Source: Methanobacteriota archaeon (GTDB lineage Archaea > Thermoplasmatota > E2 > DHVEG-1). From it: DNA of 64,000 nt. The stretch's first letter is position 1; each line of letters begins with the position of its first letter. The notes beneath the pieces are model-generated. The model saw only the letters and a list, made by a program, of their open reading frames with translations. It was not told the origin of the DNA and did not search any database. Shown here piece after piece: positions 1 through 20,347 of the stretch. The stretch is from assembly GCA_963769885.1 (NCBI GenBank), contig CAVYNH010000001.1, positions 1 to 64,000 of the forward strand, in the 5' to 3' direction. Position numbers and translations under genes: made by a program.

Positions 1-755
1 TCGGTCTTCTTAATCTCTAAAGCGGCGTTGACCAAGGCGATCTTGGCGTTGTGGACGTGCTTGGGCATGCCTTCGTGGACGCGTTCCTTGTCGAGGATGA
101 TGCCCTTGATGATCTTGGTATCGTTGATGCTACCGCCCTGTTTCTTCTGGATCTGGATGTTGTCCATGTCGACTTCGGTGCGTCCATCGATTTTCTCGGC
201 GACGCTGGTGACCGCGTCGACGACGACGTCGGAGAGGATTGCTTTTGCGGAGCTGGCTCCCTTGCTGGCCATGGAGGTCATGGCGATGTTCTTCAGCGTT
301 TTTTTGTCGTTGGGCTTGATCGGGATCGCCATCTTGTTGAGGATTTCGACCGCCTTTATGGCCGCCTTCTGGTATCCGCCCGTGATGACGGTGGGATGGA
401 TGTTCTGTTCGATGAGCTCGCCGGCGTTGCGAAGGAGTTCTCCGGTGAGGATCACGGCGGTGGTGGTGCCGTCGCCGCATTGTTCGTCTTGGGCTTTGGC
501 GACTTCGACGATCATTTTTGCGGCGGGGTGTTCGACGTCGATTTCTTTGAGGATGGTGGCGCCGTCGTTGGTGATGACGACGTCGCCCATGGAGTCGACG
601 AGCATCTTGTCCATGCCTTTGGGTCCGAGCGTGGATTTCACGGCGTCGGAGATTGCGCGGGCTGCCATGATGTTGTTGAGTTGGGCGCCTTTGCCTTTTT
701 CGCGTTTCGTGCCTTCTTTAAGGATGATTATGGGTGTCTGTCCTCCAGCCATCAT
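1..755 (-). CDS. Thermosome subunit, 5' part (mirror copy, runs off the window edge)
   Basis: Reverse complement of 18692-19446 (MMAGGQTPIIILKEG...GDGTTT). Confidence 0.9.
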   Translation of the reverse strand, partial: MMAGGQTPIIILKEGTKREKGKGAQLNNIMAARAISDAVKSTLGPKGMDKMLVDSMGDVVITNDGATILKEIDVEHPAAKMIVEVAKAQDEQCGDGTTTAVILTGELLRNAGELIEQNIHPTVITGGYQKAAIKAVEILNKMAIPIKPNDKKTLKNIAMTSMASKGASSAKAILSDVVVDAVTSVAEKIDGRTEVDMDNIQIQKKQGGSINDTKIIKGIILDKERVHEGMPKHVHNAKIALVNAALEIKKT

Positions 756-892
756 ACTGTTCTATGCCTCCTTTATAAGTAGGTTAAAAGCATTCCCAGC
801 ATATGGACACTTCTATATAAACCTATCTGAACAGGGTGCTGTGTAATACTGTAGTGGAAATTTAGTAGTGGAAAATCTGTAGTGGTATCAGA

Positions 893-2334
893 TTAGAAAC
901 CCATTTCTAATAATTCTTTTACTGATCTTAATGTAATATCTATATTCTCGCTTTTTATTCTTGCAACCTCTTCAAAAGCATCTTTAGTAAAACTAAAAGC
1001 AATAACTATGCCTTTATTGGTTTTAGCTCGCTTCATTGATGCCTCAAAATTATCTACTATGGGTCTTCCTACTTTATCCATTTGTTTTGCTTGGAGAACT
1101 GTTCCATCAATAGTATATCCATCAATACCCATGTCTTTTGCTTTCTTCGTCTGAATAGCGAAAAGAACATCACATACCCAGTTTTCAAACTCGAAAGGAT
1201 GCAATTTTCTAAGATCATCTTCTGTCTTTGGGAGTCCAATTATAGGAATGTTTTTCACGACAAACAATCCCATTTTTTTTACATTTCCCATACGATTTTT
1301 TATGACATTACATGCAGTAGGTGAAATATCAATACCAATCCATTTTCTCCTCAAATAATGTGCTGCAACGATAGTCGTACCACAGCCACAGAAAGGATCA
1401 AGTACAATGTCATTTTCATTTGAGGAAATCCGTATTATTCTTTCAAGTAAACGTTTTGGTTTTTGAGTTGGGTATTCCATCCATTCACTTTTTTCACTAT
1501 GTTTACCCATTCCACGCAACATAGAAATGTCAGTCCAAATGTCTTGAGGAGGTGTCCCCTTTGTTTCATCTAAATATCGCTTTTCATAAACCCTTCCATT
1601 CTTAGAATAAGCAAGACGTTTTTCTCTTTCCAATCTCCCCATCACCTCAACCGTATATTCCCAATGTCTCCCCTTTGGTGGATATTTTCCGTTCCATTTA
1701 TAATGCGCTGCCGTACCTTGCCTATCCCCAGGTGCGCTTATATCACCTTTATTGTATCGTCTTACATGTCCTTTTTCAATTTTTTTCCCAAGACGATTAA
1801 TAATATTTTTCGATGCAATTTCTTCATATTTATACCAAGTATCTGCGGTTTCTTCGCTAAGTGGAATGTATTCTTCTAATGCTTTGTTAAACGTGTACTC
1901 ATTTGATTTTGTATAAAATAAAATCGTATCATGCATAGCTCCATATTTATTGGTGAAACTTTGAGCATCTTTTCTTTTCCAAATTATTTCATTCTTAAAA
2001 TTATTATAACCAAAAATATCATCCATCACTATTTTGAGATAATGACTTGCATGACTATCGCAATGTAAATAAATCGACCCTTTACTGTCCAAAACACGAT
2101 GGCAAGTTCGAGTCTTTCCCTCATATATTCAATATAATGATGAATACCACCTTTCCATCGATCATCAAAGGCTTTTTTTTCGCTATTAGTGCCAAACACT
2201 ATATTATAAATCCTGCCACTTGAAAATGGTGGATCAAGATAAATTAAATTTACAAATCCTTCTGGAAATCGCCTCAATACATCAAGGCAATCTCCGCAGT
2301 AAATAGTATCGGTTTTTATTTGCATGTTTTCCAT
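893..2334 (-). pseudogene. DNA methyltransferase-Mrr-like fusion, mirror copy with a 1-bp deletion near 2105 (probably sequence error)
   Basis: ORFs 2029-2334 and 893-2092 together equal the intact 17112-18554. Confidence 0.85.
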
Positions 2335-2365
2335 TTTTAAATCTCCATTTGAATTATATAACTTT

Positions 2366-3527
2366 TCAATTCTGATTTTTAGCCTTTTGGTACTGAATTG
2401 ATTTTTTCATAAGTGTAAGCCATTTCTTTTTTCCTTCAATGGTTATCCCTGCTTCCTCACTCGGTGTTTTACCATCAAGTGTCTCATGTGGTTTAATGAA
2501 ATTGTAGTAAATCCTGTGCCCTTCAACGATAGGAGTTTTCTATCTTTATTCCTCTAATGCTTTTTCACGTTGCCGAATAGTCCCATGTAATCTTTCAACG
2601 TGGTTGTTATTTGGATGGTGCTTTAACCCTACATTCCATAGATGTTCGGTTTCATCATATTAGTTATAAACTCTTTGTTAATCGCATTTTTATATGCTGG
2701 TAGACCATCGGTAACAATGTATTTCGGTTTTCGTCCACCGCGTTCTTTTTTGCTTTCTGGAATACCATACGTGCATCTCTAACATGTCGTTCTTTTGATA
2801 CCACACTTGCTAATTGAAAACGTGTATTTTCATCCATGACATTCCAGAGGTACTCCCATGAGCCATCTATTTTAACCATCATTTCATCAGTATGCCATAC
2901 ATCCCCAATATCAGGTTGTATTTCATTGACGTATTCATTCATTATCCCTACATATTTTTCAATCCAATTGTAAACTGATTTATGGCAAATATTCAGATCA
3001 TAGAACTGTTTTAGATGTTGGCAGATTTTCCTGAGTGATATTCCTTTGAAATACAGATCAAGCGTTAATGCGATTATCTTAGGGTTATATTTCATATTCT
3101 CAAAATCAATATTATTGACAAATCTTCGATTACAGGTCTTACAGAAATAGACTTGTTTACTATTTTTCATCCCATATTTTGTCACTTCTGTTGAATGACA
3201 AAACTTACAGCAATCAACATCAATATCTGTTAACGTAATTTTCTGTTTCACTTTGAGATGTATTTGTTCAAATTTCTCTTTCAGGTTCTTCCATATCTTA
3301 ACCGCATTGATGTGTTTACAAGGTATTCCTCTTAGTTCAAAATCTGGACATGTACAATGCCAATACCGCATCTGTACATCAACTTGATATGTTCCATTTC
3401 CTGTCTGACTTGGCACTATCCACGTATGCGGATTAATCTCGGTTGGTTCTATTCCTTGTTTTAAAAGTGTCATGCCTCTAGCTTTTCTTGCGTTAACCAT
3501 TTCTTTAATATCTATTTTGTTGCCCAT
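2366..3527 (-). pseudogene. IS6/IS240-type DDE transposase with N-terminal SWIM and Zn-ribbon domains, frameshifted copy
   Basis: SWIM CTCPDF...CKHI; CxxC..CxxC ribbon; HTH (SLRKI...YNWI); WHTDE; TDG and NNHVERLHGT readable in shifted frames. Confidence 0.85.
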
Positions 3528-3685
3528 ATATTTCGCCAAGTTTTATAATACATTGTCAGTATATAAAGCTATCAGTTATCTTTATATATATAATAACCGT
3601 TTATGTGCAACATCAACGTACAACATAACTATGCACAAGGTATGTGCATCTTAATGTTGTATATAAAATTACAAGGAGAAAAACA

Positions 3686-4177
3686 ATGGATGACGCAATA
3701 AATAGAAGTCAAATCGGATTTTCAAAAGAGGAATTAAAAAAAATGTCTCCCGAAGATAGAAAAAGATTTGCTCGTTCAATCATATTAAAAGTTGTTAAAG
3801 ATAATCCACAAGGAATTAGTTTACCTCAAGTATCTGATGTTGCAGGGATTGATCGCAGAACAGCATCTAAACATTTAGATTACCTTACAGCGATCAGAGA
3901 GTTGTATAGGCGACAGTTTAGTCAAAGAAATTTCCTCTATTATCCTAATGGAAAAGTAGCCCATCCAACTTTAATAAAAGATGTAAAAATAGGTGAAAAA
4001 TATTATAACTTTCAATTGATCGAAAACCCTTTTGGTAAATTTGTGTATATCCAAGAAAAAACAAGAGATGAATACAATATTTTTACCATTGTCGGAGGAT
4101 TGATGTTAAATGCAAACCAACTCGATGAACTAATATTACATTTAAAAAATATTAAAAAAGAGGTCGATAGCATATGA
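3686..4177 (+). CDS. Winged-HTH protein with a C-terminal PUR/DUF3276-like nucleic-acid-binding domain
   Basis: ILKVVKDNPQGISLPQVSDVAGIDRRTASKHLDYL (wHTH); GEKYYNFQLIENPFGKFVYIQEK resembles a PUR repeat; aggag RBS; ATGA overlap with the next gene. Confidence 0.65.
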   Translation: MDDAINRSQIGFSKEELKKMSPEDRKRFARSIILKVVKDNPQGISLPQVSDVAGIDRRTASKHLDYLTAIRELYRRQFSQRNFLYYPNGKVAHPTLIKDVKIGEKYYNFQLIENPFGKFVYIQEKTRDEYNIFTIVGGLMLNANQLDELILHLKNIKKEVDSI

Positions 4178-5475
4178 AAGAAAAAGTAAAAAGATCAACC
4201 CAAGTGATGATCTATCCTGAAAAGAAAGTAAACAACGCAAGAATTACAACGATCAATTTAAACAATAAAACAATCAAAACACCCTGTTATATCCCTAAGA
4301 TAAGAACATCAAAAGAACTTGACATAATTATTGATGAAAAGAAAATAAATGACTATTTCCAAGGAATATTTTTTGATATATTAAATGTATCATCATTGAA
4401 CAGAGAGAAAACAATATTCAATCCTAAACAAACACGTTTAATCCCAATGATTTCCTATGATTTTAAAACCTTAAAAGGCATCCTCCCTGTTTTCATTGAT
4501 CCAAACACGGAATATCTTTATCTAAACAACAAGCAAAAAAGAACGCAATATAAAAATCTCCCGTCACTCCCACAAAAAATTTCTGATTTTTTAACCAAAT
4601 CAACATATGCGAATTATACTAAGATGTGGCAACAACTGTATAACTCAGGAGATACTACTACAGTCATCAACTGGAATGTAAGAGAACAAAATAAATATCA
4701 ACCTGATGCGATAGTACCATTCGTACCATTTATCGAGGGTGAAAACTCCCCTCTAATAGATATAGCAATTGATGTAAATAAAAAATCCGCTTTCACTATA
4801 GCGGATACCTTTGGTCTTGAACCATCTTTCTATTTTAACCTCAATTATTCAGCATTACGGAATTTAGATCAACTTAAAAAAATCACAGATTTCTTAATGG
4901 ACGTAGACGGAGAATATGAGAACGTAAAAATCATTTTCATCAAAATAAAATACTTCCCTCTGAATGATACCGATGTAAGAAGAAACCTCGGAACATTTGC
5001 CAAGTCTATTCAGGAAGCGGCTGAATTTAACAATAAATTTACTTTCTTGATAGATGCGGATGCATATGCCATACCATGTATATCCACTGGATTTGACGGT
5101 TTCATCGAACCATTAAATGGTTACATTAATGATTATGGCGGTAGCGGTAAATCTTCAAAATTCAGATCATATTATGACAGAAAACGAATGGAATTGGTAA
5201 AAGCAAATAAGATTAAAAATAAACCGTTAAAATGCGGTTGCCCCCGATGTTCAAAGATTAATGAAGTATATGGTGGCGCATTTTTTAACAAGATAGACCC
5301 GCATCTATGGAGTGCATGGAGTAAGGAACATTTGTTCTACAGTAGATGCCAAGAAGTAAAAGAAGTCAGGGACGCAATAAATGACAACGGCATAGCCAGG
5401 ATACAGGATAAATTCATCAACTCCTCCAAAAAAGATTTCATTGAAATTCTTGGTTACTACACTGATGGAGATTAA
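4174..5475 (+). CDS. Divergent tRNA-guanine transglycosylase (TGT/DpdA)-fold protein
   Basis: N-terminal ARITTINLNNKTIKTPCYIP resembles TGT ARxGxlxTxxGxIxTPxFMP; C-terminal CGCPRC...H...EVRDAI Zn site typical of TGT. Confidence 0.7.
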   Translation: MKEKVKRSTQVMIYPEKKVNNARITTINLNNKTIKTPCYIPKIRTSKELDIIIDEKKINDYFQGIFFDILNVSSLNREKTIFNPKQTRLIPMISYDFKTLKGILPVFIDPNTEYLYLNNKQKRTQYKNLPSLPQKISDFLTKSTYANYTKMWQQLYNSGDTTTVINWNVREQNKYQPDAIVPFVPFIEGENSPLIDIAIDVNKKSAFTIADTFGLEPSFYFNLNYSALRNLDQLKKITDFLMDVDGEYENVKIIFIKIKYFPLNDTDVRRNLGTFAKSIQEAAEFNNKFTFLIDADAYAIPCISTGFDGFIEPLNGYINDYGGSGKSSKFRSYYDRKRMELVKANKIKNKPLKCGCPRCSKINEVYGGAFFNKIDPHLWSAWSKEHLFYSRCQEVKEVRDAINDNGIARIQDKFINSSKKDFIEILGYYTDGD

Positions 5476-5672
5476 AACAGATTAAATTTTTTACCATCCC
5501 TATCGAAAAAACTACATAAGTTTTTTGGCGAAACATATGAGCTTAATGATAGGGATGGCAAGAACATCAATGTCATTTGTTTTTAAAATAGTTTGCAAAC
5601 CTAAAATACACAAAATATTTAAAAAATAAAAAATTACATACATTCAGAAGAATAGAGATAGAGGACATATTT

Positions 5673-6182
5673 ATGTGTGAAAAAGAAATAAGACAATACA
5701 ATTCAATTATTTCAATTTGGGAAAGATGGGATAAAGGATATTGGGACTCATTTCATTTTTATATTATTGTCATATCCTTATTATTCGCAGGCTATTCTCA
5801 AATAATAAATAAAATAAATATTGCAGCAGTAATAGTTTGTTTTACTGGTTTTATAATAAGTATTTTCTGGTTCTTTATTTTGCATAGAAAATATGCCCAT
5901 ATTCTTATAGCAGAAAATGAAGGAAGAAAATTAGAGACTAAAATATTCACAGATTGTAATGGTTGTTTTACTTCAAATAAAAATTTTAAGAAAGGAACAT
6001 ATAACGAAATTGATGAAGCTTTAGGTTGTAGAAAATTCTTAACAAAAATAAGTTCTGGTTTAATTGTATCATTTTTTGTACCATTAACATTTACCATAAT
6101 CTGGTTAACATTAATGATTATAACAACAGTTCATTGGATAATTAAGGATGTCTGTCCTTTCATCATATCAGTTATAACATAA
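5673..6182 (+). CDS. Small membrane protein (about 3 TM helices), transposon cargo
   Basis: Hydrophobic segments; gagga RBS; stop codon abuts the subterminal repeats. Confidence 0.7.
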   Translation: MCEKEIRQYNSIISIWERWDKGYWDSFHFYIIVISLLFAGYSQIINKINIAAVIVCFTGFIISIFWFFILHRKYAHILIAENEGRKLETKIFTDCNGCFTSNKNFKKGTYNEIDEALGCRKFLTKISSGLIVSFFVPLTFTIIWLTLMIITTVHWIIKDVCPFIISVIT

Positions 6183-6240
6183 CCATCTAAATTTCCCACT
6201 ACTGATTTCCCACTACAGTATTACACAGAACCCTGAACAG

Positions 6241-6292
6241 GGTTCTGTGTAACCGTGGTTTGGGCAGTTTAGACTGGGAAATCTAGGTTGGT
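6241..6292 (+). mobile_element. Terminus of a second related IS6-like element (mirror of 13159-13210)
   Basis: GGTTCTGTGTAA immediately follows the TSD, then diverged 14-bp-periodic TGGG repeats. Confidence 0.7.
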
Positions 6293-6375
6293 TTCTCCGA
6301 GAGTCGCTGATAAAAGGAAAATGATAAAACAAACAAGATGATGTAGATTTGCTTTCAAATTTAAAGGAGGTAAAT

Positions 6376-6657
6376 ATGGGTGTTGAAGCTTATAAAGAAT
6401 GCAGAGGCTTGGTAGAATCCTATGTTTGTAATAGAGGAACGACTATACAACGTGCTATAAAAAACATAAACACAAGACTGAAAAAAGCAAAATTAACCGA
6501 TCAAGATATTGAAAAAATTCTTGCGGAAGTCAATAAAAATAATGTATCTGATTTTGAAAATTCAACTGCTTTCCCCAATCTTTTTCAAGAAAGAAAACAA
6601 AGATTTGAACTCATAGAGAAAGAACTACAACAATTATTGAATATACATCTAGCTTAG
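6376..6657 (+). CDS. Hypothetical protein, 93 aa
   Basis: ggagg RBS, ATG at 6376, open frame. Confidence 0.6.
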   Translation: MGVEAYKECRGLVESYVCNRGTTIQRAIKNINTRLKKAKLTDQDIEKILAEVNKNNVSDFENSTAFPNLFQERKQRFELIEKELQQLLNIHLA

Positions 6658-6703
6658 TTTTAGGTCCTACCGGAATTGAAGAATACTATTTCCCAAAGTA
6701 TAA

Positions 6704-6856
6704 GGGCCTGGTTCATAATTCGTTTCTCCTGTTGAACAAATCGTAAAGAATCTTGTGAGCTGCTGCTTTCCTGCTTCTTTTCTTCCAAATCACGCGCACT
6801 CTAGAATCAACAGTCTTTTAGACAATTTCTCCTGTTGGGAATTATGAACCAAGCCC
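6704..6856. mobile_element. MITE or internally deleted IS: 153 bp, 18-bp TIR, 9-bp TSD aaagtataa
   Basis: GGGCCTGGTTCATAATTC ... GAATTATGAACCAAGCCC; TSD at 6695-6703 and 6857-6865. Confidence 0.85.
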
Positions 6857-7018
6857 AAAGTATAAACGAAAGGATGGGAATTTTAGTTTTACAAATCCTT
6901 TTAACAAGCCGATGGATAAACAGTATTGGTTTCCCCGTATTGCGTCGTTCACCAAACTACGCTCAGTAGAAGACTTCTGATAAGTCAGGCTTTCTACCAG
7001 GGGAGACGGGAAAAAAAT

Positions 7019-7342
7019 ATGGTCGAAGAAACAACAGAGAAGAGAACAGCTGAAAAAGGAAGAACCGATGAAAACGTGATATATGTTGGAAAGAAACCCC
7101 CAATGAGCTATGTGCTTGCAATAGTAACACAGTTCAATAGTGGATCAGATGAAGTAATAATAAAAGCTAGAGGCAGAACGATTAGCACAGCAGTCGATGC
7201 TGCAGAAATAACCAGGAACCGGTTTGTCACAGACGTGAAAGTCAAAGACATAAAAATTAGTACTGAAAGTATCACCAATGAGGAAGGGAGAACCTCGAAT
7301 GTATCTTCAATGGAAATCTGCTTAACGAAAAAGAAAAAATAA
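7019..7342 (+). CDS. albA: DNA/RNA-binding protein Alba (mirror copy)
   Basis: [15 protein letters not shown]...[17 protein letters not shown]. Confidence 0.95.
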
Positions 7343-7387
7343 AGAAGTAATTGAAAAATAAGAGAAGAAAAAAAAGAGGGATATGGA

Positions 7388-9682
7388 CTAATATTGTAGT
7401 CCTAATCTTTGGATTATTTTTTGTAGGATTGGGAACAGATTAGGATGATTCTCTACGAACCTTAGGAATGGTACGTGAGTATATGCTTTGTTTGTAGGCA
7501 TAGTCACTGACAATGTCGACTCTGGACCTATTAAACCATTAACATCCTCAGCTCTTGCTTTGATAAAATAAGTCCCTCGACTACTCCAAGTGTGTGATAC
7601 CGTTACATCTGTACCAGATGGACTAAAAGCAGTCGTATCAGAGGTATTATCACCCCACTCAATGATGTAACGAACTTGATCTCCATCTGGATCTACTGCG
7701 TTGAATATATAGTTATACCCTATTCCTACTATTCCACTTGTTGGACCATTTATTGTTGGTGCATTTGGAGGATTTCCACCGCCACCGGTGAACTTTGCCA
7801 CAAAAGCATCTCCACCGCCGTTGTAGATTCTGTCGTAGGCTCCTAGTGTCGTCGGAAAATCAGAAGAATAGGTTGCACCGGTGATGGAGGCTTCCCCATC
7901 ATCAATCGCAATATCATGGCCATAATCATAATAGGTTCCGCCGAGGTAGGTACTGTAGATAAGGATGTTACCACCAGGGGAAAGCTTCGACACAAAAACA
8001 TCTCCACCGCCGTTGTAGGTGGTGTCGTAGGCTCCTAGTGTCGTCGGGAAATTAGAAGAATTGGTGCCACCGGTGATGTAGGCGTTCCCACCAGCAACCG
8101 CAATACAATAGCCCCGATCAATATCAGTTCCGCCGAGGTATGTACTATAGTTAAGGGAGTTACCAGTACTGAGTAACTTTGTCACAAAAGCATCTCCACC
8201 GCCGTTGTAGGTGGTGTCGTAGGCTCCTAGTGTCGTCGGGAAATTAGAAGAATAGGTGTAACCGGTGATATAGGCGTTCCCATCAGCAACTGCAATACCA
8301 AGGCCCTCATCATTAAGGGTTCCGCCGAGGTAGGTACTGTAGATAAGGGAGCTGCCAGTACGGGGAAACTTTGTCACAAAAACATCATACCCGCCGTTGT
8401 AGGTGGGGTCGTAGGCTCCTAGTGTCGGGAAATTAGAAGAATTGGTGCCACCGGTGATGTAGGCGTTCCCATCAGCAACTGCAATACCATAGCCATAATC
8501 ATAACCTATTCCGCCGAGGTATGTACTGTAGGCAAGGGCGTTGCCAGCAGGGCGAAACTGTGTCACAAAAGCATCACTATAACCGTTGTAGGTGGTGTCG
8601 TAGGCGCCGGGTGTTATCGGAAAATCAAAATCAGAAGAATAGGTTGCACCGGTGATGGAGGCGTTCCCACCAGCAACTGCAATACCATAGCCATAATCAG
8701 AACTGGTTCCGCCGAGATAGGTACGATAGATAAGAATGCTACCATAAGGGGAAAGCTTAGTCACAAAAACATCACAATAACCGTTGTAGGTGGTGTCGTA
8801 GGCTCCTAGTGTCGTCGGAAAATCAGAAGACCAGGTGCCACCGGTGATGTAGGCGTTCCCATCATCAACCGCAATATCATGGCCCCGTTCATTATTGGTT
8901 CCGCCGAGGTAGGTACTGTAGATAAGGGCGTTACCAGCAAGGGGAAGCTTCGACACAAAAACATCATACTGGCCGTTGTAGGTTCTGTCGTAGGCTTGTG
9001 GTGTCGTCGGAAAATCAGGAGAATTGGTGTAACCGGTGATGTAGGCGTTCCCATCATCAACCGCAATACCAAGGCCCTCATCATAATAGGTTCCGCCGAG
9101 GTAGGTACTATACGCCAGCGTAGGGTCGATAACAAGTGGATACAACGGATTGTATTCATCCTCGATAGCAAAACCGAAACTATTTGGCTGTCTGGGTTCG
9201 TATCTTCCTATAATCCCTTGTTTTATGCCGTTGATTTCTTGGTATATCACCGGTGATTTCTCGGAAAATAGACCAAACCGGGTCTCTATCGCAAGGTCAC
9301 CATCTGATGTTACCCTCATGTTATCAACACCATCATATCGAATAAGAATCGTATCTGGGTCTCCACCAGAATAGACAATGAAATCGTATTTCAACGTGTT
9401 CTCAATGAAATGGTACTGTAAATCAATTCCAGGGTAGATACCCTTGTACACAACCTCTTGGTAATTCGGAACATCGGTATACCACTTCTCAGGGTTATTT
9501 CCAATGAAATAGTTGTTATTGTTAGGAAGTCGACGCTCACCGGTAACGACTGCACTGGGGTTTGCGCCAACAAACTCCGCGACCGTAGAAATCATCTCCA
9601 TCTGTTGCGGTTCTCTTACTTGTATTCGTTCCATCGGGTTTTTGTTATCCTTCAAATCGGCACTCTTAGAATCGTTTAATTC
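7388..9682 (-). CDS. SBBP-repeat beta-propeller/PKD surface protein, 5'-truncated at the fold-back
   Basis: Tandem YSTYLGG...AYITG.T.S.DFPTT.GAYD.TYNG..DVFV repeats; PKD-like WGD domain; amphipathic C-terminal tail. Confidence 0.85.
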   Translation of the reverse strand, partial: ELNDSKSADLKDNKNPMERIQVREPQQMEMISTVAEFVGANPSAVVTGERRLPNNNNYFIGNNPEKWYTDVPNYQEVVYKGIYPGIDLQYHFIENTLKYDFIVYSGGDPDTILIRYDGVDNMRVTSDGDLAIETRFGLFSEKSPVIYQEINGIKQGIIGRYEPRQPNSFGFAIEDEYNPLYPLVIDPTLAYSTYLGGTYYDEGLGIAVDDGNAYITGYTNSPDFPTTPQAYDRTYNGQYDVFVSKLPLAGNALIYSTYLGGTNNERGHDIAVDDGNAYITGGTWSSDFPTTLGAYDTTYNGYCDVFVTKLSPYGSILIYRTYLGGTSSDYGYGIAVAGGNASITGATYSSDFDFPITPGAYDTTYNGYSDAFVTQFRPAGNALAYSTYLGGIGYDYGYGIAVADGNAYITGGTNSSNFPTLGAYDPTYNGGYDVFVTKFPRTGSSLIYSTYLGGTLNDEGLGIAVADGNAYITGYTYSSNFPTTLGAYDTTYNGGGDAFVTKLLSTGNSLNYSTYLGGTDIDRGYCIAVAGGNAYITGGTNSSNFPTTLGAYDTTYNGGGDVFVSKLSPGGNILIYSTYLGGTYYDYGHDIAIDDGEASITGATYSSDFPTTLGAYDRIYNGGGDAFVAKFTGGGGNPPNAPTINGPTSGIVGIGYNYIFNAVDPDGDQVRYIIEWGDNTSDTTAFSPSGTDVTVSHTWSSRGTYFIKARAEDVNGLIGPESTLSVTMPTNKAYTHVPFLRFVENHPNLFPILQKIIQRLGLQY

Positions 9683-12063
9683 CCGGAAGAAGTACCGTTT
9701 CAGACGCATGCCCCCGGGGCAACCGTCTATCTCTGCAAGAACAAAATCGTCTCAGTGTTCACCAGAGAATTAAACGATTCTAAGAGTGCCGATTTGAAGG
9801 ATAACAAAAACCCGATGGAACGAATACAAGTAAGAGAACCGCAACAGATGGAGATGATTTCTACGGTCGCGGAGTTTGTTGGCGCAAACCCCAGTGCAGT
9901 CGTTACCGGTGAGCGTCGACTTCCTAACAATAACAACTATTTCATTGGAAATAACCCTGAGAAGTGGTATACCGATGTTCCGAATTACCAAGAGGTTGTG
10001 TACAAGGGTATCTACCCTGGAATTGATTTACAGTACCATTTCATTGAGAACACGTTGAAATACGATTTCATTGTCTATTCTGGTGGAGACCCAGATACGA
10101 TTCTTATTCGATATGATGGTGTTGATAACATGAGGGTAACATCAGATGGTGACCTTGCGATAGAGACCCGGTTTGGTCTATTTTCCGAGAAATCACCGGT
10201 GATATACCAAGAAATCAACGGCATAAAACAAGGGATTATAGGAAGATACGAACCCAGACAGCCAAATAGTTTCGGTTTTGCTATCGAGGATGAATACAAT
10301 CCGTTGTATCCACTTGTTATCGACCCTACGCTGGCGTATAGTACCTACCTCGGCGGAACCTATTATGATGAGGGCCTTGGTATTGCGGTTGATGATGGGA
10401 ACGCCTACATCACCGGTTACACCAATTCTCCTGATTTTCCGACGACACCACAAGCCTACGACAGAACCTACAACGGCCAGTATGATGTTTTTGTGTCGAA
10501 GCTTCCCCTTGCTGGTAACGCCCTTATCTACAGTACCTACCTCGGCGGAACCAATAATGAACGGGGCCATGATATTGCGGTTGATGATGGGAACGCCTAC
10601 ATCACCGGTGGCACCTGGTCTTCTGATTTTCCGACGACACTAGGAGCCTACGACACCACCTACAACGGTTATTGTGATGTTTTTGTGACTAAGCTTTCCC
10701 CTTATGGTAGCATTCTTATCTATAGTACCTATCTCGGCGGAACCAGTTCTGATTATGGCTATGGTATTGCAGTTGCTGGTGGGAACGCCTCCATCACCGG
10801 TGCAACCTATTCTTCTGATTTTGATTTTCCGATAACACCCGGCGCCTACGACACCACCTACAACGGTTATAGTGATGCTTTTGTGACACAGTTTCGCCCT
10901 GCTGGCAACGCCCTTGCCTACAGTACATACCTCGGCGGAATAGGTTATGATTATGGCTATGGTATTGCAGTTGCTGATGGGAACGCCTACATCACCGGTG
11001 GCACCAATTCTTCTAATTTCCCGACACTAGGAGCCTACAACCCCACCTACAACGGCGGGTATGATGTTTTTGTGACAAAGTTTCCCCGGTACTGGCAGCT
11101 CCCTTATCTACAGTACCTACCTCGGCGGAACCCTTAATGATGAGGGCCTTGGTATTGCAGTTGCTGATGGGAACGCCTATATCACCGGTTACACCTATTC
11201 TTCTAATTTCCCGACGACACTAGGAGCCTACGACACCACCTACAACGGCGGTGGAGATGCTTTTGTGACAAAGTTACTCAGGACCTGGTAACTCCCTTAA
11301 CTATAGTACATACCTCGGCGGAACTGATATTGATCGGGGCTATTGTATTGCGGTTGCTGGTGGGAACGCCTACATCACCGGTGGCACCAATTCTTCTAAT
11401 TTCCCGACGACACTAGGAGCCTACGACACCACCTACAACGGCGGTGGAGATGTTTTTGTGTCGAAGCTTTCCCCTGGTGGTAACATCCTTATCTACAGTA
11501 CCTACCTCGGCGGAACCTATTATGATTATGGCCATGATATTGCGATTGATGATGGGGAAGCCTCCATCACCGGTGCAACCTATTCTTCTGATTTTCCGAC
11601 GACACTAGGAGCCTACGACAGAATCTACAACGGCGGTGGAGATGCTTTTGTGGCAAAGTTCACCGGTGGCGGTGGAAATCCTCCAAATGCACCAACAATA
11701 AATGGTCCAACAAGTGGAATAGTAGGAATAGGGTATAACTATATATTCAACGCAGTAGATCCAGATGGAGATCAAGTTCGTTACATCATTGAGTGGGGTG
11801 ATAATACCTCTGATACGACTGCTTTTAGTCCATCTGGTACAGATGTAACGGTATCACACACTTGGAGTAGTCGAGGGACTTATTTTATCAAAGCAAGAGC
11901 TGAGGATGTTAATGGTTTAATAGGTCCAGAGTCGACATTGTCAGTGACTATGCCTACAAACAAAGCATATACTCACTTACCATTCCTAAGGTTCGTAGAG
12001 AATCATCCTAATCTGTTCCCAATCCTACAAAAAATAATCCAAAGATTAGGACTACAATATTAG
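9680..12063 (+). pseudogene. SBBP-repeat/PKD surface protein, 5'-truncated, with frameshifts near 11088 and 11282 (probably sequence errors)
   Basis: Frame is open from 9680 (FPEEVPFQTHAPGATVYLCKNKIVSVFTRE); ORFs 9755-11137 and 11458-12063; the mirror copy has no frameshifts. Confidence 0.85.
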
Positions 12064-12108
12064 TCCATATCCCTCTTTTTTTTCTTCTCTTATTTTTCAA
12101 TTACTTCT

Positions 12109-12432
12109 TTATTTTTTCTTTTTCGTTAAGCAGATTTCCATTGAAGATACATTCGAGGTTCTCCCTTCCTCATTGGTGATACTTTCAGTACTAATTTTTA
12201 TGTCTTTGACTTTCACGTCTGTGACAAACCGGTTCCTGGTTATTTCTGCAGCATCGACTGCTGTGCTAATCGTTCTGCCTCTAGCTTTTATTATTACTTC
12301 ATCTGATCCACTATTGAACTGTGTTACTATTGCAAGCACATAGCTCATTGGGGGTTTCTTTCCAACATATATCACGTTTTCATCGGTTCTTCCTTTTTCA
12401 GCTGTTCTCTTCTCTGTTGTTTCTTCGACCAT
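12109..12432 (-). CDS. albA: DNA/RNA-binding protein Alba
   Basis: Alba motifs GKKP and KARG. Confidence 0.95.
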
Positions 12433-12594
12433 ATTTTTTTCCCGTCTCCCCTGGTAGAAAGCCTGACTTATCAGAAGTCTTCTACTGAGCGTAGTTTGGT
12501 GAACGACGCAATACGGGGAAACCAATACTGTTTATCCATCGGCTTGTTAAAAGGATTTGTAAAACTAAAATTCCCATCCTTTCGTTTATACTTT

Positions 12595-12747
12595 GGGCTT
12601 GGTTCATAATTCCCAACAGGAGAAATTGTCTAAAAGACTGTTGATTCTAGAGTGCGCGTGATTTGGAAGAAAAGAAGCAGGAAAGCAGCAGCTCACAAGA
12701 TTCTTTACGATTTGTTCAACAGGAGAAACGAATTATGAACCAGGCCC
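12595..12747. mobile_element. MITE, 153 bp, 9-bp TSD ttatacttt
   Basis: 18-bp TIR with 1 mismatch; TSD at 12586-12594 and 12748-12756. Confidence 0.85.
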
Positions 12748-12793
12748 TTATACTTTGGGAAATAGTATTCTTCAATTCCGGTAGGACCTAAAA

Positions 12794-13075
12794 CTAAGCT
12801 AGATGTATATTCAATAATTGTTGTAGTTCTTTCTCTATGAGTTCAAATCTTTGTTTTCTTTCTTGAAAAAGATTGGGGAAAGCAGTTGAATTTTCAAAAT
12901 CAGATACATTATTTTTATTGACTTCCGCAAGAATTTTTTCAATATCTTGATCGGTTAATTTTGCTTTTTTCAGTCTTGTGTTTATGTTTTTTATAGCACG
13001 TTGTATAGTCGTTCCTCTATTACAAACATAGGATTCTACCAAGCCTCTGCATTCTTTATAAGCTTCAACACCCAT
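12794..13075 (-). CDS. Hypothetical protein, 93 aa
   Basis: Mirror of 6376-6657. Confidence 0.6.
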   Translation of the reverse strand: MGVEAYKECRGLVESYVCNRGTTIQRAIKNINTRLKKAKLTDQDIEKILAEVNKNNVSDFENSTAFPNLFQERKQRFELIEKELQQLLNIHLA

Positions 13076-13158
13076 ATTTACCTCCTTTAAATTTGAAAGC
13101 AAATCTACATCATCTTGTTTGTTTTATCATTTTCCTTTTATCAGCGACTCTCGGAGAA

Positions 13159-13210
13159 ACCAACCTAGATTTCCCAGTCTAAACTGCCCAAACCACGGTT
13201 ACACAGAACC
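13159..13210 (-). mobile_element. Terminus of a second related IS6-like element abutting the TSD
   Basis: ...ttacacagaacc|ctgttcag|ggttctgtgtaa... Confidence 0.7.
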
Positions 13211-13268
13211 CTGTTCAGGGTTCTGTGTAATACTGTAGTGGGAAATCAGTAGTGGGAAATTTAGATGG

Positions 13269-13778
13269 TTATGTTATAACTGATATGATGAAAGGACAGA
13301 CATCCTTAATTATCCAATGAACTGTTGTTATAATCATTAATGTTAACCAGATTATGGTAAATGTTAATGGTACAAAAAATGATACAATTAAACCAGAACT
13401 TATTTTTGTTAAGAATTTTCTACAACCTAAAGCTTCATCAATTTCGTTATATGTTCCTTTCTTAAAATTTTTATTTGAAGTAAAACAACCATTACAATCT
13501 GTGAATATTTTAGTCTCTAATTTTCTTCCTTCATTTTCTGCTATAAGAATATGGGCATATTTTCTATGCAAAATAAAGAACCAGAAAATACTTATTATAA
13601 AACCAGTAAAACAAACTATTACTGCTGCAATATTTATTTTATTTATTATTTGAGAATAGCCTGCGAATAATAAGGATATGACAATAATATAAAAATGAAA
13701 TGAGTCCCAATATCCTTTATCCCATCTTTCCCAAATTGAAATAATTGAATTGTATTGTCTTATTTCTTTTTCACACAT
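13269..13778 (-). CDS. Small membrane protein, transposon cargo
   Basis: Identical protein to 5673-6182. Confidence 0.7.
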   Translation of the reverse strand: MCEKEIRQYNSIISIWERWDKGYWDSFHFYIIVISLLFAGYSQIINKINIAAVIVCFTGFIISIFWFFILHRKYAHILIAENEGRKLETKIFTDCNGCFTSNKNFKKGTYNEIDEALGCRKFLTKISSGLIVSFFVPLTFTIIWLTLMIITTVHWIIKDVCPFIISVIT

Positions 13779-13975
13779 AAATATGTCCTCTATCTCTATT
13801 CTTCTGAATGTATGTAATTTTTTATTTTTTAAATATTTTGTGTATTTTAGGTTTGCAAACTATTTTAAAAACAAATGACATTGATGTTCTTGCCATCCCT
13901 ATCATTAAGCTCATATGTTTCGCCAAAAAACTTATGTAGTTTTTTCGATAGGGATGGTAAAAAATTTAATCTGTT

Positions 13976-15275
13976 TTAATCTCCATCAGTGTAGTAACCA
14001 AGAATTTCAATGAAATCTTTTTTGGAGGAGTTGATGAATTTATCCTGTATCCTGGCTATGCCGTTGTCATTTATTGCGTCCCTGACTTCTTTTACTTCTT
14101 GGCATCTACTGTAGAACAAATGTTCCTTACTCCATGCACTCCATAGATGCGGGTCTATCTTGTTAAAAAATGCGCCACCATATACTTCATTAATCTTTGA
14201 ACATCGGGGCAACCGCATTTTAACGGTTTATTTTTAATCTTATTTGCTTTTACCAATTCCATTCGTTTTCTGTCATAATATGATCTGAATTTTGAAGATT
14301 TACCGCTACCGCCATAATCATTAATGTAACCATTTAATGGTTCGATGAAACCGTCAAATCCAGTGGATATACATGGTATGGCATATGCATCCGCATCTAT
14401 CAAGAAAGTAAATTTATTGTTAAATTCAGCCGCTTCCTGAATAGACTTGGAAATGTTCCGAGGTTTCTTCTTACATCGGTATCATTCAGAGGGAAGTATT
14501 TTATTTTGATGAAAATGATTTTTACGTTCTCATATTCTCCGTCTACGTCCATTAAGAAATCTGTGATTTTTTTAAGTTGATCTAAATTCCGTAATGCTGA
14601 ATAATTGAGGTTAAAATAGAAAGATGGTTCAAGACCAAAGGTATCCGCTATAGTGAAAGCGGATTTTTTATTTACATCAATTGCTATATCTATTAGAGGG
14701 GAGTTTTCACCCTCGATAAATGGTACGAATGGTACTATTGCATCAGGTTGATATTTATTTTGTTCTCTTACATTCCAGTTGATGACTGTAGTAGTATCTC
14801 CTGAGTTATACAGTTGTTGCCACATCTTAGTATAATTCGCATATGTTGATTTGGTTAAAAAATCAGAAATTTTTTGTGGGAGTGACGGCAGATTTTTATA
14901 TTGCGTTCTTTTTTGCTTGTTGTTTAGATAAACATATTCCGTGTTTGGATCAATGAAAACAGGGAGGATGCCTTTTAAGGTTTTAAAATCATAGGAAATC
15001 ATTGGGATTAAACGTGTTTGTTTAGGATTGAATATTGTTTTCTCTCTGTTCAATGATGATACATTTAATATATCAAAAAATATTCCTTGGAAATAGTCAT
15101 TTATTTTCTTTTCATCAATAATTATGTCAAGTTCTTTTGATGTTCTTATCTTAGGGATATAACAGGGTGTTTTGATTGTTTTATTGTTTAAATTGATCGT
15201 TGTAATTCTTGCGTTGTTTACTTTCTTTTCAGGATAGATCATCACTTGGGTTGATCTTTTTACTTTTTCTTTCAT
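13976..15275 (-). pseudogene. TGT-fold protein, copy with two frameshifts (probably sequence errors)
   Basis: Three ORF fragments together match the intact 4174-5475. Confidence 0.75.
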
Positions 15276-15762
15276 ATGCTATCGACCTCTTTTTTAATAT
15301 TTTTTAAATGTAATATTAGTTCATCGAGTTGGTTTGCATTTAACATCAATCCTCCGACAATGGTAAAAATATTGTATTCATCTCTTGTTTTTTCTTGGAT
15401 ATACACAAATTTACCAAAAGGGTTTTCGATCAATTGAAAGTTATAATATTTTTCACCTATTTTTACATCTTTTATTAAAGTTGGATGGGCTACTTTTCCA
15501 TTAGGATAATAGAGGAAATTTCTTTGACTAAACTGTCGCCTATACAACTCTCTGATCGCTGTAAGGTAATCTAAAGTTGAGATGCGGTTCTGCGATCAAT
15601 CCCTGCAACATCAGATACTTGAGGTAAACTAATTCCTTGTGGATTATCTTTAACAACTTTTAATATGATTGAACAAGCAAATCTTTTTCTATCTTCGGGA
15701 GACATTTTTTTTAATTCCTCTTTTGAAAATCCGATTTGACTTCTATTTATTGCGTCATCCAT
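15272..15762 (-). pseudogene. wHTH-PUR-like protein, copy frameshifted near 15580
   Basis: Fragments match 3686-4177. Confidence 0.7.
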
Positions 15763-15921
15763 TGTTTTTCTCCTTGTAATTTTATATACAACATTAAGAT
15801 GCACATACCTTGTGCATAGTTATGTTGTACAGTTGATGTTGCACATAAACGGTTATTATATATATAAAGATAACTGATAGCTTTATATACTGACAATGTA
15901 TTATAAAACTTGGCGAAATAT

Positions 15922-17080
15922 ATGGGCAACAAAATAGATATTAAAGAAATGGTTAACGCAGAAAAGCTAGAGGCATGACACTTTTAGAACAAGGAATAGA
16001 ACCAACCGAGATTAATCCGCATACGTGGATAGTGCCAAGTCAGACAGGAAATGGAACATATCAAGTTGATGTCCAGATGCGGTATTGGCATTGTACATGT
16101 CCAGATTTTGAACTAAAAGTATTGTAAACACATCAATGCGGTTAAGATATGGAAGAACCTGAAAGAGAAATTTGAACAAATACATCTCAAAGTGAAACAG
16201 AAAATTACGTTAACAGATATTGATGTTGATTGCTGTAAGTTTTGTCATTCAACAGAAGTGACAAAATATGGGATGAAAAATAGTAAACAAGTCTATTTCT
16301 GTAAGACCTGTAATCGAAGATTTGTCAATAATGTTGACTTCGAGAATATGAAATATAACCCTAAGATAATCGCATTAACGCTTGATCTGTATTTCAAAGG
16401 AATAAGTCTCAGGAAAATAAGCCAACATCTAAAACAATTCTATGAACTGAATATAAGCCATAAATCAGTTTACAACTGGATAGAAAAATATGTAGGGATA
16501 ATGAATGAATACGTCAATGAAATACAACCTGATATTGGGGAAGTATGGCATACTGACGAAATGATGATTAAAATAGATGGCTCATGGAGACCTCTGGAAT
16601 GTCATGGACGAACGTACACGGTTTCAACTCGCTTCTGTGGTATCAAAAGAACGATATGTTAAAGATGCACGTATGGTATTTCAGAAGGCAAAAAAGAACT
16701 GCGGTGGACGCAAGCCGAAGTTCATGGTTACCGATGGTCTACCCGCATATAGGGATGCGGTGAACAAGGAGTTTAAAACTAATACTGATGAAACAGAACA
16801 CCTATGGAATGTGGGGTTACAGCACCATCCAAATAACAACCACATTGAAAGATTACATGGGACAATACGGGATCGTGAAAAAACATTTAGAGGGTTAAAG
16901 ATAGAAAGTACCCCTATTATTGATGGGAACAGGATTTACTACAATTTCATAAAACCACATGAAAATCTTGATGGTAAAACTCCGAGTGAGGAATCGGGAA
17001 TAATCATTGAAGGAAATAATAAATGGCTTACTCTTATGAAAAAATCAATTCAGTACCAAAAGGCTAAAAATCAGAATTGA
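15922..17080 (+). pseudogene. SWIM/Zn-ribbon IS6-type DDE transposase, frameshifted copy
   Basis: WHTDE, VTDGLPAY, NNHIERLHGTIRDR, YYNFIKPH...GKTP. Confidence 0.85.
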
Positions 17081-17111
17081 AAAGTTATATAATTCAAATG
17101 GAGATTTAAAA

Positions 17112-18554
17112 ATGGAAAACATGCAAATAAAAACCGATACTATTTACTGCGGAGATTGCCTTGATGTATTGAGGCGATTTCCAGAAGGATTTGTAAATTT
17201 AATTTATCTTGATCCACCATTTTCAAGTGGCAGGATTTATAATATAGTGTTTGGCACTAATAGCGAAAAAAAAGCCTTTGATGATCGATGGAAAGGTGGT
17301 ATTCATCATTATATTGAATATATGAGGGAAAGACTCGAACTCTGCCATCGTGTTTTGGACAGTAAAGGGTCGATTTATTTACATTGCGATAGTCATGCAA
17401 GTCATTATCTCAAAATAGTGATGGATGATATTTTTGGTTATAATAATTTTAAGAATGAAATAATTTGGAAAAGAAAAGATGCTCAAAGTTTCACCAATAA
17501 ATATGGAGCTATGCATGATACGATTTTATTTTATACAAAATCAAATGAGTACACGTTTAACAAAGCATTAGAAGAGTACATTCCACTTAGCGAAGAAACC
17601 GCAGATACTTGGTATAAATATGAAGAAATTGCATCGAAAAATATTATTAATCGTCTTGGGAAAAAAATTGAAAAAGGACATGTAAGACGATACAATAAAG
17701 GTGATATAAGCGCACCTGGGGATAGGCAAGGTACGGCAGCGCATTATAAATGGAACGGAAAATATCCACCAAAGGGGAGACATTGGGAATATACGGTTGA
17801 GGTGATGGGGAGATTGGAAAGAGAAAAACGTCTTGCTTATTCTAAGAATGGAAGGGTTTATGAAAAGCGATATTTAGATGAAACAAAGGGGACACCTCCT
17901 CAAGACATTTGGACTGACATTTCTATGTTGCGTGGAATGGGTAAACATAGTGAAAAAAGTGAATGGATGGAATACCCAACTCAAAAACCAAAACGTTTAC
18001 TTGAAAGAATAATACGGATTTCCTCAAATGAAAATGACATTGTACTTGATCCTTTCTGTGGCTGTGGTACGACTATCGTTGCAGCACATTATTTGAGGAG
18101 AAAATGGATTGGTATTGATATTTCACCTACTGCATGTAATGTCATAAAAAATCGTATGGGAAATGTAAAAAAAATGGGATTGTTTGTCGTGAAAAACATT
18201 CCTATAATTGGACTCCCAAAGACAGAAGATGATCTTAGAAAATTGCATCCTTTCGAGTTTGAAAACTGGGTATGTGATGTTCTTTTCGCTATTCAGACGA
18301 AGAAAGCAAAAGACATGGGTATTGATGGATATACTATTGATGGAACAGTTCTCCAAGCAAAACAAATGGATAAAGTAGGAAGACCCATAGTAGATAATTT
18401 TGAGGCATCAATGAAGCGAGCTAAAACCAATAAAGGCATAGTTATTGCTTTTAGTTTTACTAAAGATGCTTTTGAAGAGGTTGCAAGAATAAAAAGCGAG
18501 AATATAGATATTACATTAAGATCAGTAAAAGAATTATTAGAAATGGGTTTCTAA
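17112..18554 (+). CDS. Beta-class N4/N6 DNA methyltransferase fused to a C-terminal Mrr-like PD-(D/E)xK domain
   Basis: DPPF (motif IV) lies before DPFCGCGTT (motif I); C-terminal FEFENWV...DMGIDGY...QAKQ. Confidence 0.88.
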   Translation: MENMQIKTDTIYCGDCLDVLRRFPEGFVNLIYLDPPFSSGRIYNIVFGTNSEKKAFDDRWKGGIHHYIEYMRERLELCHRVLDSKGSIYLHCDSHASHYLKIVMDDIFGYNNFKNEIIWKRKDAQSFTNKYGAMHDTILFYTKSNEYTFNKALEEYIPLSEETADTWYKYEEIASKNIINRLGKKIEKGHVRRYNKGDISAPGDRQGTAAHYKWNGKYPPKGRHWEYTVEVMGRLEREKRLAYSKNGRVYEKRYLDETKGTPPQDIWTDISMLRGMGKHSEKSEWMEYPTQKPKRLLERIIRISSNENDIVLDPFCGCGTTIVAAHYLRRKWIGIDISPTACNVIKNRMGNVKKMGLFVVKNIPIIGLPKTEDDLRKLHPFEFENWVCDVLFAIQTKKAKDMGIDGYTIDGTVLQAKQMDKVGRPIVDNFEASMKRAKTNKGIVIAFSFTKDAFEEVARIKSENIDITLRSVKELLEMGF

Positions 18555-18624
18555 TCTGATACCACTACAGATTTTCCACTACTAAATTTCCACTACAGTA
18601 TTACACAGCACCCTGTTCAGATAG

Positions 18625-18632
18625 GTTTATAT
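18625..18632 (+). promoter_or_regulatory. Putative TATA box of the thermosome gene
   Basis: tttatata about 60 bp upstream of the ATG; ggagg RBS downstream. Confidence 0.55.
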
Positions 18633-18691
18633 AGAAGTGTCCATATGCTGGGAATGCTTTTAACCTACTTATAAAGGAGGCATAGAACAGT

Positions 18692-20347
18692 ATGATGGCT
18701 GGAGGACAGACACCCATAATCATCCTTAAAGAAGGCACGAAACGCGAAAAAGGCAAAGGCGCCCAACTCAACAACATCATGGCAGCCCGCGCAATCTCCG
18801 ACGCCGTGAAATCCACGCTCGGACCCAAAGGCATGGACAAGATGCTCGTCGACTCCATGGGCGACGTCGTCATCACCAACGACGGCGCCACCATCCTCAA
18901 AGAAATCGACGTCGAACACCCCGCCGCAAAAATGATCGTCGAAGTCGCCAAAGCCCAAGACGAACAATGCGGCGACGGCACCACCACCGCCGTGATCCTC
19001 ACCGGAGAACTCCTTCGCAACGCCGGCGAGCTCATCGAACAGAACATCCATCCCACCGTCATCACGGGCGGATACCAGAAGGCGGCCATAAAGGCGGTCG
19101 AAATCCTCAACAAGATGGCGATCCCGATCAAGCCCAACGACAAAAAAACGCTGAAGAACATCGCCATGACCTCCATGGCCAGCAAGGGAGCCAGCTCCGC
19201 AAAAGCAATCCTCTCCGACGTCGTCGTCGACGCGGTCACCAGCGTCGCCGAGAAAATCGATGGACGCACCGAAGTCGACATGGACAACATCCAGATCCAG
19301 AAGAAACAGGGCGGTAGCATCAACGATACCAAGATCATCAAGGGCATCATCCTCGACAAGGAACGCGTCCACGAAGGCATGCCCAAGCACGTCCACAACG
19401 CCAAGATCGCCTTGGTCAACGCCGCTTTAGAGATTAAGAAGACCGAGGTCGACGCCCGCATCCAGATCCAGGACCCCAGCCAACTCCAGGCCTTCCTCGA
19501 TGAGGAAGAGACCATGCTGAAGAAGATGGTTGAAAAAATCAAGAAGAGCGGGGCCAACGTCCTCGTCTGCCAGAAGGGCATCGATGACATCGCCCAGCAC
19601 TTCCTCGCCAAAGATGGCATCTACGCGGTCCGGCGCGCCAAGAAATCCGACATGGACAAGCTCGCCAAGGCCACCGGCGCAAAGATCGTCGCCAACCTCG
19701 ACAACCTCAGCGTCAAGGACCTCGGACAGGCTGGCGCCGTCGAAGAACAGAAGATCGGCGACGACCGCATGACCTTTGTTGTCGACTGCAAGAACCCCAA
19801 GGCCGTCAGCATCCTCATCCGCGGCAGCACCGAACACATCGTCGACGAGCTTGACCGCGGCATGCACGACGCCCTCTTCGTCGTCAAAGTCGCCCTCGAG
19901 GACGGGAAGATGACCGCCGGCGGCGGCAGCGCAGCCACCGAGATCGCCATGCAGCTGCGCGAGTACGCCACCACTGTCGGCGGCCGCGAGCAGATGGCGA
20001 TCGAGGCGTTCGCCAACGCGGTCGAAGTCGTCCCCAAGACCCTGGCGGAGAACGCGGGTCTTGACCCCATCGATATGATGATCAACGTCCGCCGCGCCCA
20101 CAAGAAGGGCAACAAGTACGCTGGCATCGACGTCTTCAACGGCAAGATCACCGACATGATTGACAACAACGTCGTCGAGCCGCTGCGCGTCAGCGTCCAG
20201 GAAGTCACGGCATCCACCGAAGCCGCCAACATGATCCTGCGCATCGACGACATCATCGCCTCCAAGAGCGGTGGCCCAGCGCCCGGCGGCCCCGGCGGCA
20301 TGCCAGGCGGCCCCGGCGGTATGGGCGGTGACATGGACGAGTACTAA
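18692..20347 (+). CDS. ths: Thermosome (group II chaperonin) subunit
   Basis: TLGPKGMDKM, GDGTTT, GGM-rich tail. Confidence 0.98.
   Translation: MMAGGQTPIIILKEGTKREKGKGAQLNNIMAARAISDAVKSTLGPKGMDKMLVDSMGDVVITNDGATILKEIDVEHPAAKMIVEVAKAQDEQCGDGTTTAVILTGELLRNAGELIEQNIHPTVITGGYQKAAIKAVEILNKMAIPIKPNDKKTLKNIAMTSMASKGASSAKAILSDVVVDAVTSVAEKIDGRTEVDMDNIQIQKKQGGSINDTKIIKGIILDKERVHEGMPKHVHNAKIALVNAALEIKKTEVDARIQIQDPSQLQAFLDEEETMLKKMVEKIKKSGANVLVCQKGIDDIAQHFLAKDGIYAVRRAKKSDMDKLAKATGAKIVANLDNLSVKDLGQAGAVEEQKIGDDRMTFVVDCKNPKAVSILIRGSTEHIVDELDRGMHDALFVVKVALEDGKMTAGGGSAATEIAMQLREYATTVGGREQMAIEAFANAVEVVPKTLAENAGLDPIDMMINVRRAHKKGNKYAGIDVFNGKITDMIDNNVVEPLRVSVQEVTASTEAANMILRIDDIIASKSGGPAPGGPGGMPGGPGGMGGDMDEY

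Follow-up and report, generated by a model that had tools for sequence, protein, structure and literature searches.

Two related transposons share a single 8-bp target in front of the thermosome gene of an archaeon, and a survey of their relatives indicates that this target is almost certainly a site defined by the core promoter. The locus lies in a window of 64,000 bp from the source genome (G000; C1, C2, C4, C6 and C7 denote contigs of this genome). The junction reads tip (13199-13210), ctgttcag (13211-13218), tip (13219-13230), and we confirmed that two element ends sharing one 8-bp target are really present. The first tip belongs to an older remnant (element B) and the second to a complete transposon (element A; Table 1). 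The other copy of ctgttcag is followed by atagg and then by TTTATATA at 18626-18633. The original prediction had put this copy 4 bp before the putative TATA box; its proximity stood, and the gap is 5 bp to TTTATATA, or 4 bp when the preceding G is counted. The BRE/TATA at the thermosome-type gene was conserved in 50 of 108 family genomes. Downstream of the thermosome gene lie grpE-like and dnaK genes (neighbours identified by eye).

Table 1. Features of the thermosome locus (positions in the window)
Feature	Position	Strand	Evidence or remark
Element B remnant, TATA-facing end and about 0.77 kb surviving	12444..13210	-	family end, ORF, motif X
Motif X, ~80-nt three-way-junction hairpin	12444..12523	-	in some family elements; here fused to Alba 5' leader
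Unrelated 153-bp MITE nested in B remnant	12595..12747		9-bp duplication
Element B end, 12-bp tip and three diverged 14-bp repeats	13157..13210	-	sequence comparison
8-bp target duplication common to B and A	13211..13218	+	same letters as 18613-18620
Element A, complete 5,394-bp IS6-like cargo transposon	13219..18612	+	TIRs, 8-bp TSD on both sides
Cargo, 8xMP-family membrane protein	13269..13778	-	PF24838, E 5.5e-10
Cargo, wHTH-like and TGT-like gene pair	13976..15804	-	frameshifted here; intact in mirror arm 3644-5475
Transposase, SWIM + Zn ribbon + HTH + DDE	15908..17080	+	PF13610, tblastn; split by indels
Cargo, N6/N4 methyltransferase fused to Mrr-like nuclease	17112..18554	+	PF01555, PF04471
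TATA-side target duplication	18613..18620	+	-13 to -6 relative to TATA box
BRE region and putative TATA box (18626-18633), thermosome promoter	18619..18633	+	sequence conservation
Thermosome subunit	18692..20347	+	PF00118, E 5e-190

Taken as a whole, targeting by distance from the promoter, stacking and docking on TBP/TFB make up an explanation that we regard as reasonably probable. How far a site lies from an archaeal core promoter decides where these IS6-like transposons insert. The duplication spans -13 to -6 and rebuilds the BRE and TATA box downstream of the element; therefore the core promoter and the target survive, and the same bases can be used again. Element B very probably inserted first and was later stripped of its far end and of most of its body, and element A inserted afterwards, between B and the TATA box. 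The ruler would be the transposase docking on TBP, probably on TBP-TFB, at a highly occupied promoter.

The TIRs of element A were identical at 37 of 42 positions, and its GC content (approximately 0.26-0.40) contrasted with that of the host DNA just outside (approximately 0.57-0.62). Element A contains one transposase gene, and the indels that split this gene are probably consensus errors, because the two arms of a palindrome differ there. Positions 1-19446 of the window form a fold-back palindrome (98.6% self-complementary, axis at ~9724); thus the segment 800-6300, with the junction copy at 6232/6241, is this locus again, in reverse. The fold-back cuts a repeat-protein gene whose 5' part forms the start of C2. 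This contig seems to be the true continuation of the region past the fold-back, and no family end was found in it.

The end of element B carries the predicted features, namely the same 12-bp tip as A and diverged 14-bp repeats beside the duplication. Beyond the tip, its identity to the left end of A falls to only 20/28 and 34/50, with the 14-bp repeat period in common, and ends in other genomes match it more closely (39-40/50). Further, a subterminal motif at ~13125-13137 recurs at the right-hand ends of the copies on C4 and C6, and a 102-aa ORF in the remnant has a 41% homologue inside element L008/L082. Because the B end is closer to the ends of other genomes and is backed by family sequence, it is not a local inverted duplication of A, and the expectation of two related elements at one target was borne out. 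It is accordingly scarcely credible that misassembly or an inverted duplication of local DNA produced the second end. The contig does start as a fold-back chimera with indel errors, and none of the public contigs listed spans the exact A/B junction; however, the junction lies 3.5 kb off the palindrome axis, and the same architecture (tip, 8 bp, tip) was present at 12 further junctions in independent assemblies. The partner end of B was absent from view, as predicted: no tip adjoined ctgttcag elsewhere in C1-C3, and a genome-wide tip scan revealed no further family end in G000.

Contigs of a related strain from one wetland sample do not contain 12446-18613; there, 12445 is joined to 18614 via 531 other letters, and no family tip was present at the duplication. 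These contigs would represent an allele that carries neither A nor B, and the far part of B and the native spacer appear to have been deleted in G000.

Motif X, at the outer edge of the remnant, is a candidate element-borne small RNA of ~80-90 nt with a conserved hairpin loop, located ~30 nt after a TATA-like box and often ~85 bp from the element end. It was observed in the window and in L002, L007, L016, L017, L058, L077, L078, L083, L094, L108 and L150, with no credible match in Rfam and no exact match in viral contigs. We rejected motif X as a guide RNA, as it occurred in 5 of 25 TSD-bounded segments and was absent from A and from the C4 copy. At other thermosome promoters, Alba did not turn up within 1.5 kb and is therefore a lineage-specific neighbour at most. 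The MITE nested in the remnant has TIRs of 16-17 bp and a second copy at C1:66385-66557; the duplications of the two copies are 9 and 8 bp, and in the C1 copy a TATA-like word directly follows the duplication.

Each of the three family copies of G000 stops 13 bp short of a TATA box, that of the thermosome gene, of the rpl3 operon or of 16S rRNA. We surveyed ~180 ends at ~100 loci, drawing on GTDB genomes, on metagenomes and on a search with the tip pattern. In an offset scan, an exact TTTAWAWA started at outside +14 in 28 of 127 unique outer ends, and every other offset gave 0-1. Counted against background, the word occupied +14 in 27 of 123 unique ends compared with 0.0006 per position (0.06%), although these statistics overstate independence because the surveyed loci are related. 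The reverse orientation gave no exact TTTAWAWA at +14 among the unique ends, and at most half of all ends are able to face a promoter. When thermosome-type promoters were excluded, the word was still found at +14 in 9 of 104 ends. Approximately 19 of the 24 TSD-confirmed close-family sites fitted the TATA register, and approximately 5 had no TATA match there; all 24 had an 8-bp TSD. Across targets, a BRE signature was evident (R at -6 in 38/42, A at -4 in 30/42, A at -3 in 33/42), in agreement with the Pyrococcus furiosus consensus (PMC6640164). Most positions of the duplication contained little information, indicating that its sequence is free, and, regardless of the bases duplicated, a 5-bp gap on the BRE side separated its TATA-side edge from the TATA box. 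Elements were inserted in both orientations (22 vs 11).

The promoters used were those of the thermosome (most often), rpl3, 16S rRNA, rpS8e, rpL44e, an Hsp20-like gene, rpS17e (assigned by eye) and dnaK; such genes are normally highly expressed. The original prediction proposed to look for homologous insertions at a fixed distance from TATA boxes or enriched before thermosome genes, and both were found: the peak at a single offset contradicts random insertion, and the thermosome is the commonest target. A safe harbour restricted to the thermosome is too narrow a description, given the other promoters hit. The idea of programmed targeting holds as far as placement is non-random and at a fixed distance from TATA, but not as a guide or element-specific address, since sister transposases use different promoters.

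At thermosome-type promoters, 20 different 8-mers served as target, and they were perfectly duplicated in the loci with both ends; therefore these are separate insertions. In a sample drawn blind to the elements, 9 of 29 thermosome promoters carried a tip at the exact base and 2 more carried a decayed tip. Empty thermosome promoters matched the far flanks of the single insertions L016 and L052, and at one rpS8e site transposases from different clades had made insertions in opposite orientations (L022, L065). On the transposase tree (the outgroup L180, on a very long branch, was ignored), use of the thermosome required 7 changes, at least 4 of them forced by strong branches. Random insertion followed by selection, or one ancient thermosome insertion inherited vertically, is thus highly improbable and largely refuted. 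Selection would purge insertions inside essential promoters, but it predicts a broad upstream spread rather than a peak at one base. Some thermosome-resident transposases do cluster on the tree (16 of 500 shuffles were as low), but the many different, perfect TSDs, both orientations and the 7 changes exclude a single inherited event.

Relatives from other Thermoplasmatota families, at 36-41% identity, had the 5-bp gap at 6 of 10 sites with a TSD of 8 or 9 bp, and no TATA match at that register at 4 of 10. Because the 5-bp gap stayed constant whether the TSD had 8 or 9 bp, it is the cut on the TATA side that is fixed. One of these distant relatives forms a triple stack before dnaK.

Among a safe harbour, recognition of resident ends and tethering to the promoter, tethering fits best, and contact with TBP/TFB is suggested by the position of the insertions. 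On this geometry we lean towards a protein tether as the ruler. The transposase might instead read the sequence or bendability of BRE-TATA by itself and cut at a constant offset without the help of a host factor, which we consider possible but rather unlikely and rank below docking on TBP or TBP-TFB. Such reading predicts the same sequence profile; the transposase has two extra zinc domains, and the two ends nested in L147 and L022 keep the usual gap to TATA-like words. Further, the 5' border of the BRE is touched by TFB. As this is where the TATA-side cut is made, a TFB tether faces a steric problem, a clash that direct reading avoids. However, TATA-like words are common in AT-rich DNA, elements included, yet the targets are mostly housekeeping promoters, and a nearly symmetric TATA box is hit on the BRE side only. 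Docking is favoured for three reasons: the duplication has no fixed sequence, most targets are genuine, strong promoters, and insertions are confined to the BRE side. The restriction to the BRE side could also reflect purifying selection instead of targeting.

The family transposase has ~392 aa, and the elements measure 2.0-8.1 kb with cargo. Two intact relatives in G000 (P0001 and P0002) passed the cut-off of the IS6 model NF033587 (128.6 and 134.2 bits; cut-off 125) and carried a SWIM domain (PF04434), with PF13610 also matched and the DDE residues D217, D277 and E315 conserved. Their predicted fold (pLDDT 88.8) comprises SWIM (~1-93), a Zn ribbon (~110-140), an HTH and a DDE core of the RNase H type. 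Fold searches returned generic DDE/integrase matches only and barely covered the N-terminal domains. Of the genes in the three G000 copies, only the transposase gene is common to all. The wHTH-PUR protein, put forward as a target selector, was rejected because it is absent from the other two G000 copies and from most family elements, occurring in only 9 other loci. The SWIM domain was the other proposed selector. In a small sample, all four TSD-bounded elements with SWIM-less transposases (L187, L290, L193, L026) lay 5-7 bp from a TATA-like box. Eight SWIM-less homologues were looked up, and one of them yielded a TSD-bounded element. Thus SWIM seems dispensable for targeting in these few cases and may have a role in setting the register; mobilization of such elements in trans is possible. 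The Zn-ribbon/HTH/DDE part, and not SWIM, probably provides the docking surface. A complex prediction of TBP, the TFB core and the transposase scored 0.00 twice and is evidence neither way. In L286, L288 and L289, the SWIM-less transposase gene is overlapped by an upstream gene for a DEDD/RNase H-like exonuclease. G000 has 3 TBP-like and 4 TFB genes, and locus L005 2686-4723 (G000 C7:86685-88722), beside a tRNA-Arg gene, contains a second TBP gene, an apparently frameshifted TFB gene and an Alba gene.

The survey contained 13 junctions of the form tip, 8 bp, tip. Among the TATA-anchored stacks where several kb were available, seven (the window, L001, L065, L078, L097, L104 and L116) had a far neighbour with a decayed tip or no partner within the locus, although some far neighbours may extend past the retrieved DNA; in L012 the far neighbour was complete. 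Wherever the two members differed, the TATA-side element was the complete one, and no TATA-anchored stack combined a complete far element with a decayed TATA-side one. This is as expected if newcomers land between the resident and the TATA box. It is very likely that stacking reflects repeated use of one site and that A is the younger element.

Newcomers could alternatively recognize resident ends and insert flush with them, in the manner of targeted IS26 transposition or of the insertion of IS3 and IS30 next to an inverted repeat. The 13 junctions agree with this, as do two stacks (L077, L182) with no TATA match at the usual register, and the targeted pathway of IS26 requires a resident copy according to the excerpt of PMC7986276. 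However, single insertions occur at the same base with empty-site flanks, so that recognition of resident ends is not needed, and most stacks are TATA-anchored with the complete member on the TATA side. Further, targeted integration by IS26 proceeds conservatively, without creating a new TSD; at the present junctions, by contrast, 8 bp are kept between different ends. We therefore regard recognition of resident ends as very unlikely and retain repeated use of the promoter-defined site. Family ends were also nested 70 bp inside other family ends (L147 1431/1501, L022 11593/11663), at the usual gap to TATA-like words.

The enzyme is IS6-like and the element falls outside the classical IS6 family. 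According to excerpts of PMC7986276 and PMC6807381, IS6/IS26 elements share the IS240-type DDE domain and the 8-bp TSD, and the E-x-x-H-x3-R motif of bacterial IS6 clades is found in the archaeal enzyme. IS6 TIRs are described as starting with GG, with G7 and G10 in the consensus (excerpt of PMC6807381); the first 8 bases of the family tip equal the bacterial consensus, and G10 is absent as in archaeal clades. Unlike IS6 enzymes of 220-250 aa, as given in these excerpts, the 392-aa transposase has SWIM and a Zn ribbon, and unlike strict IS6 elements (~0.8 kb, no passengers), the family elements measure 2-8 kb and have cargo flanking a single transposase gene on either side. Replicative transposition via cointegrates and a targeted conservative pathway characterize the IS6/IS26 family. 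The 14-bp subterminal repeats and fixed-distance promoter targeting are further differences; the latter was not found in the excerpts of either paper.

TnGBS ICEs, ISLre2 and ISKra4 (p-MULT 3/4) insert upstream of sigma-A promoters at a fixed distance of 15-17 bp; they have been proposed to contact the initiation complex, and the ISKra4 group inserts both ways round (PMC3942029). The present family likewise uses a DDE transposase and inserts upstream of core promoters at a constant spacing, in both orientations like the ISKra4 group. In contrast to these Mutator-type enzymes at sigma-A promoters, its enzyme is IS6-like (the Mutator/IS256 model NF033543 gave only 32 bits against a cut-off of 150) and its targets are archaeal BRE/TATA promoters. 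Integration of Ty3 is set by the TBP-containing initiation factor TFIIIB, and the intasome contacts TBP (PMC8632968). Position is set relative to the promoter in both systems, and here it is the geometry that points to TBP; Ty3, however, is an LTR retrotransposon that integrates at the transcription start of Pol III genes, whereas this family consists of DNA transposons found upstream of BRE/TATA. The family works like TnGBS/ISLre2/ISKra4 and Ty3 and is a member of neither. Tn7, with its site attTn7, has cargo, repeated transposase-binding sites in its ends, insertion at a fixed offset and tandem insertions. The present family resembles it in its cargo, its end repeats, its fixed offset from a recognized site and its tandem insertions, but has one transposase, no TnsC/TnsD, many promoters and both orientations. 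In a search of mostly open literature, we found no published account of promoter-targeted insertion in archaea or by IS6-like enzymes.

Promoter-guided insertion is known from yeast and from some Firmicute elements. To this the locus adds a thermosome hot spot with measured occupancy, a stacking order and a constant gap at 8- and 9-bp TSDs. We see an even chance that a widespread archaeal DDE family uses the TBP/TFB pre-initiation complex as its target selector, regenerates its landing site at strong promoters and stacks defence and modification cargo in order. If so, it would be an archaeal counterpart of Ty3-TFIIIB targeting that works with a single enzyme of ~390 aa, and it would leave ordered, datable stacks of such cargo before essential genes. 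With approximately one third of the sampled thermosome promoters occupied, the family is a major route for restriction-modification and defence cargo. A one-protein system precise to a single base offers an in vitro route to how transposases exploit TBP/TFB, and possibly a tool for safe-site integration in archaea. In uncultured archaea, the places where the elements insert point out genuine core promoters.

Empty thermosome promoters carry a conserved motif, cggaactactgc, immediately before the target 8-mer; this motif is possibly a regulator site. It was found in L254, L259, L261-L264, L267, L269 and L280, and variants flank element ends in L008, L045, L100 and L156; in G000, the native upstream motif of the thermosome promoter was not found. 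Insertion severs the motif from the BRE/TATA, and the harbour may therefore not be neutral for heat-shock regulation. In L008/L082 (5843-11736), the motif is present at both element ends with different 8-mers and no TATA, an arrangement that probably arose by rearrangement between copies at two promoters. L016 (CAZQSR010000113.1) is filed as an Ignavibacteriaceae MAG, yet it carries an archaeal thermosome-type promoter with a family element, and this contig is probably mis-binned.
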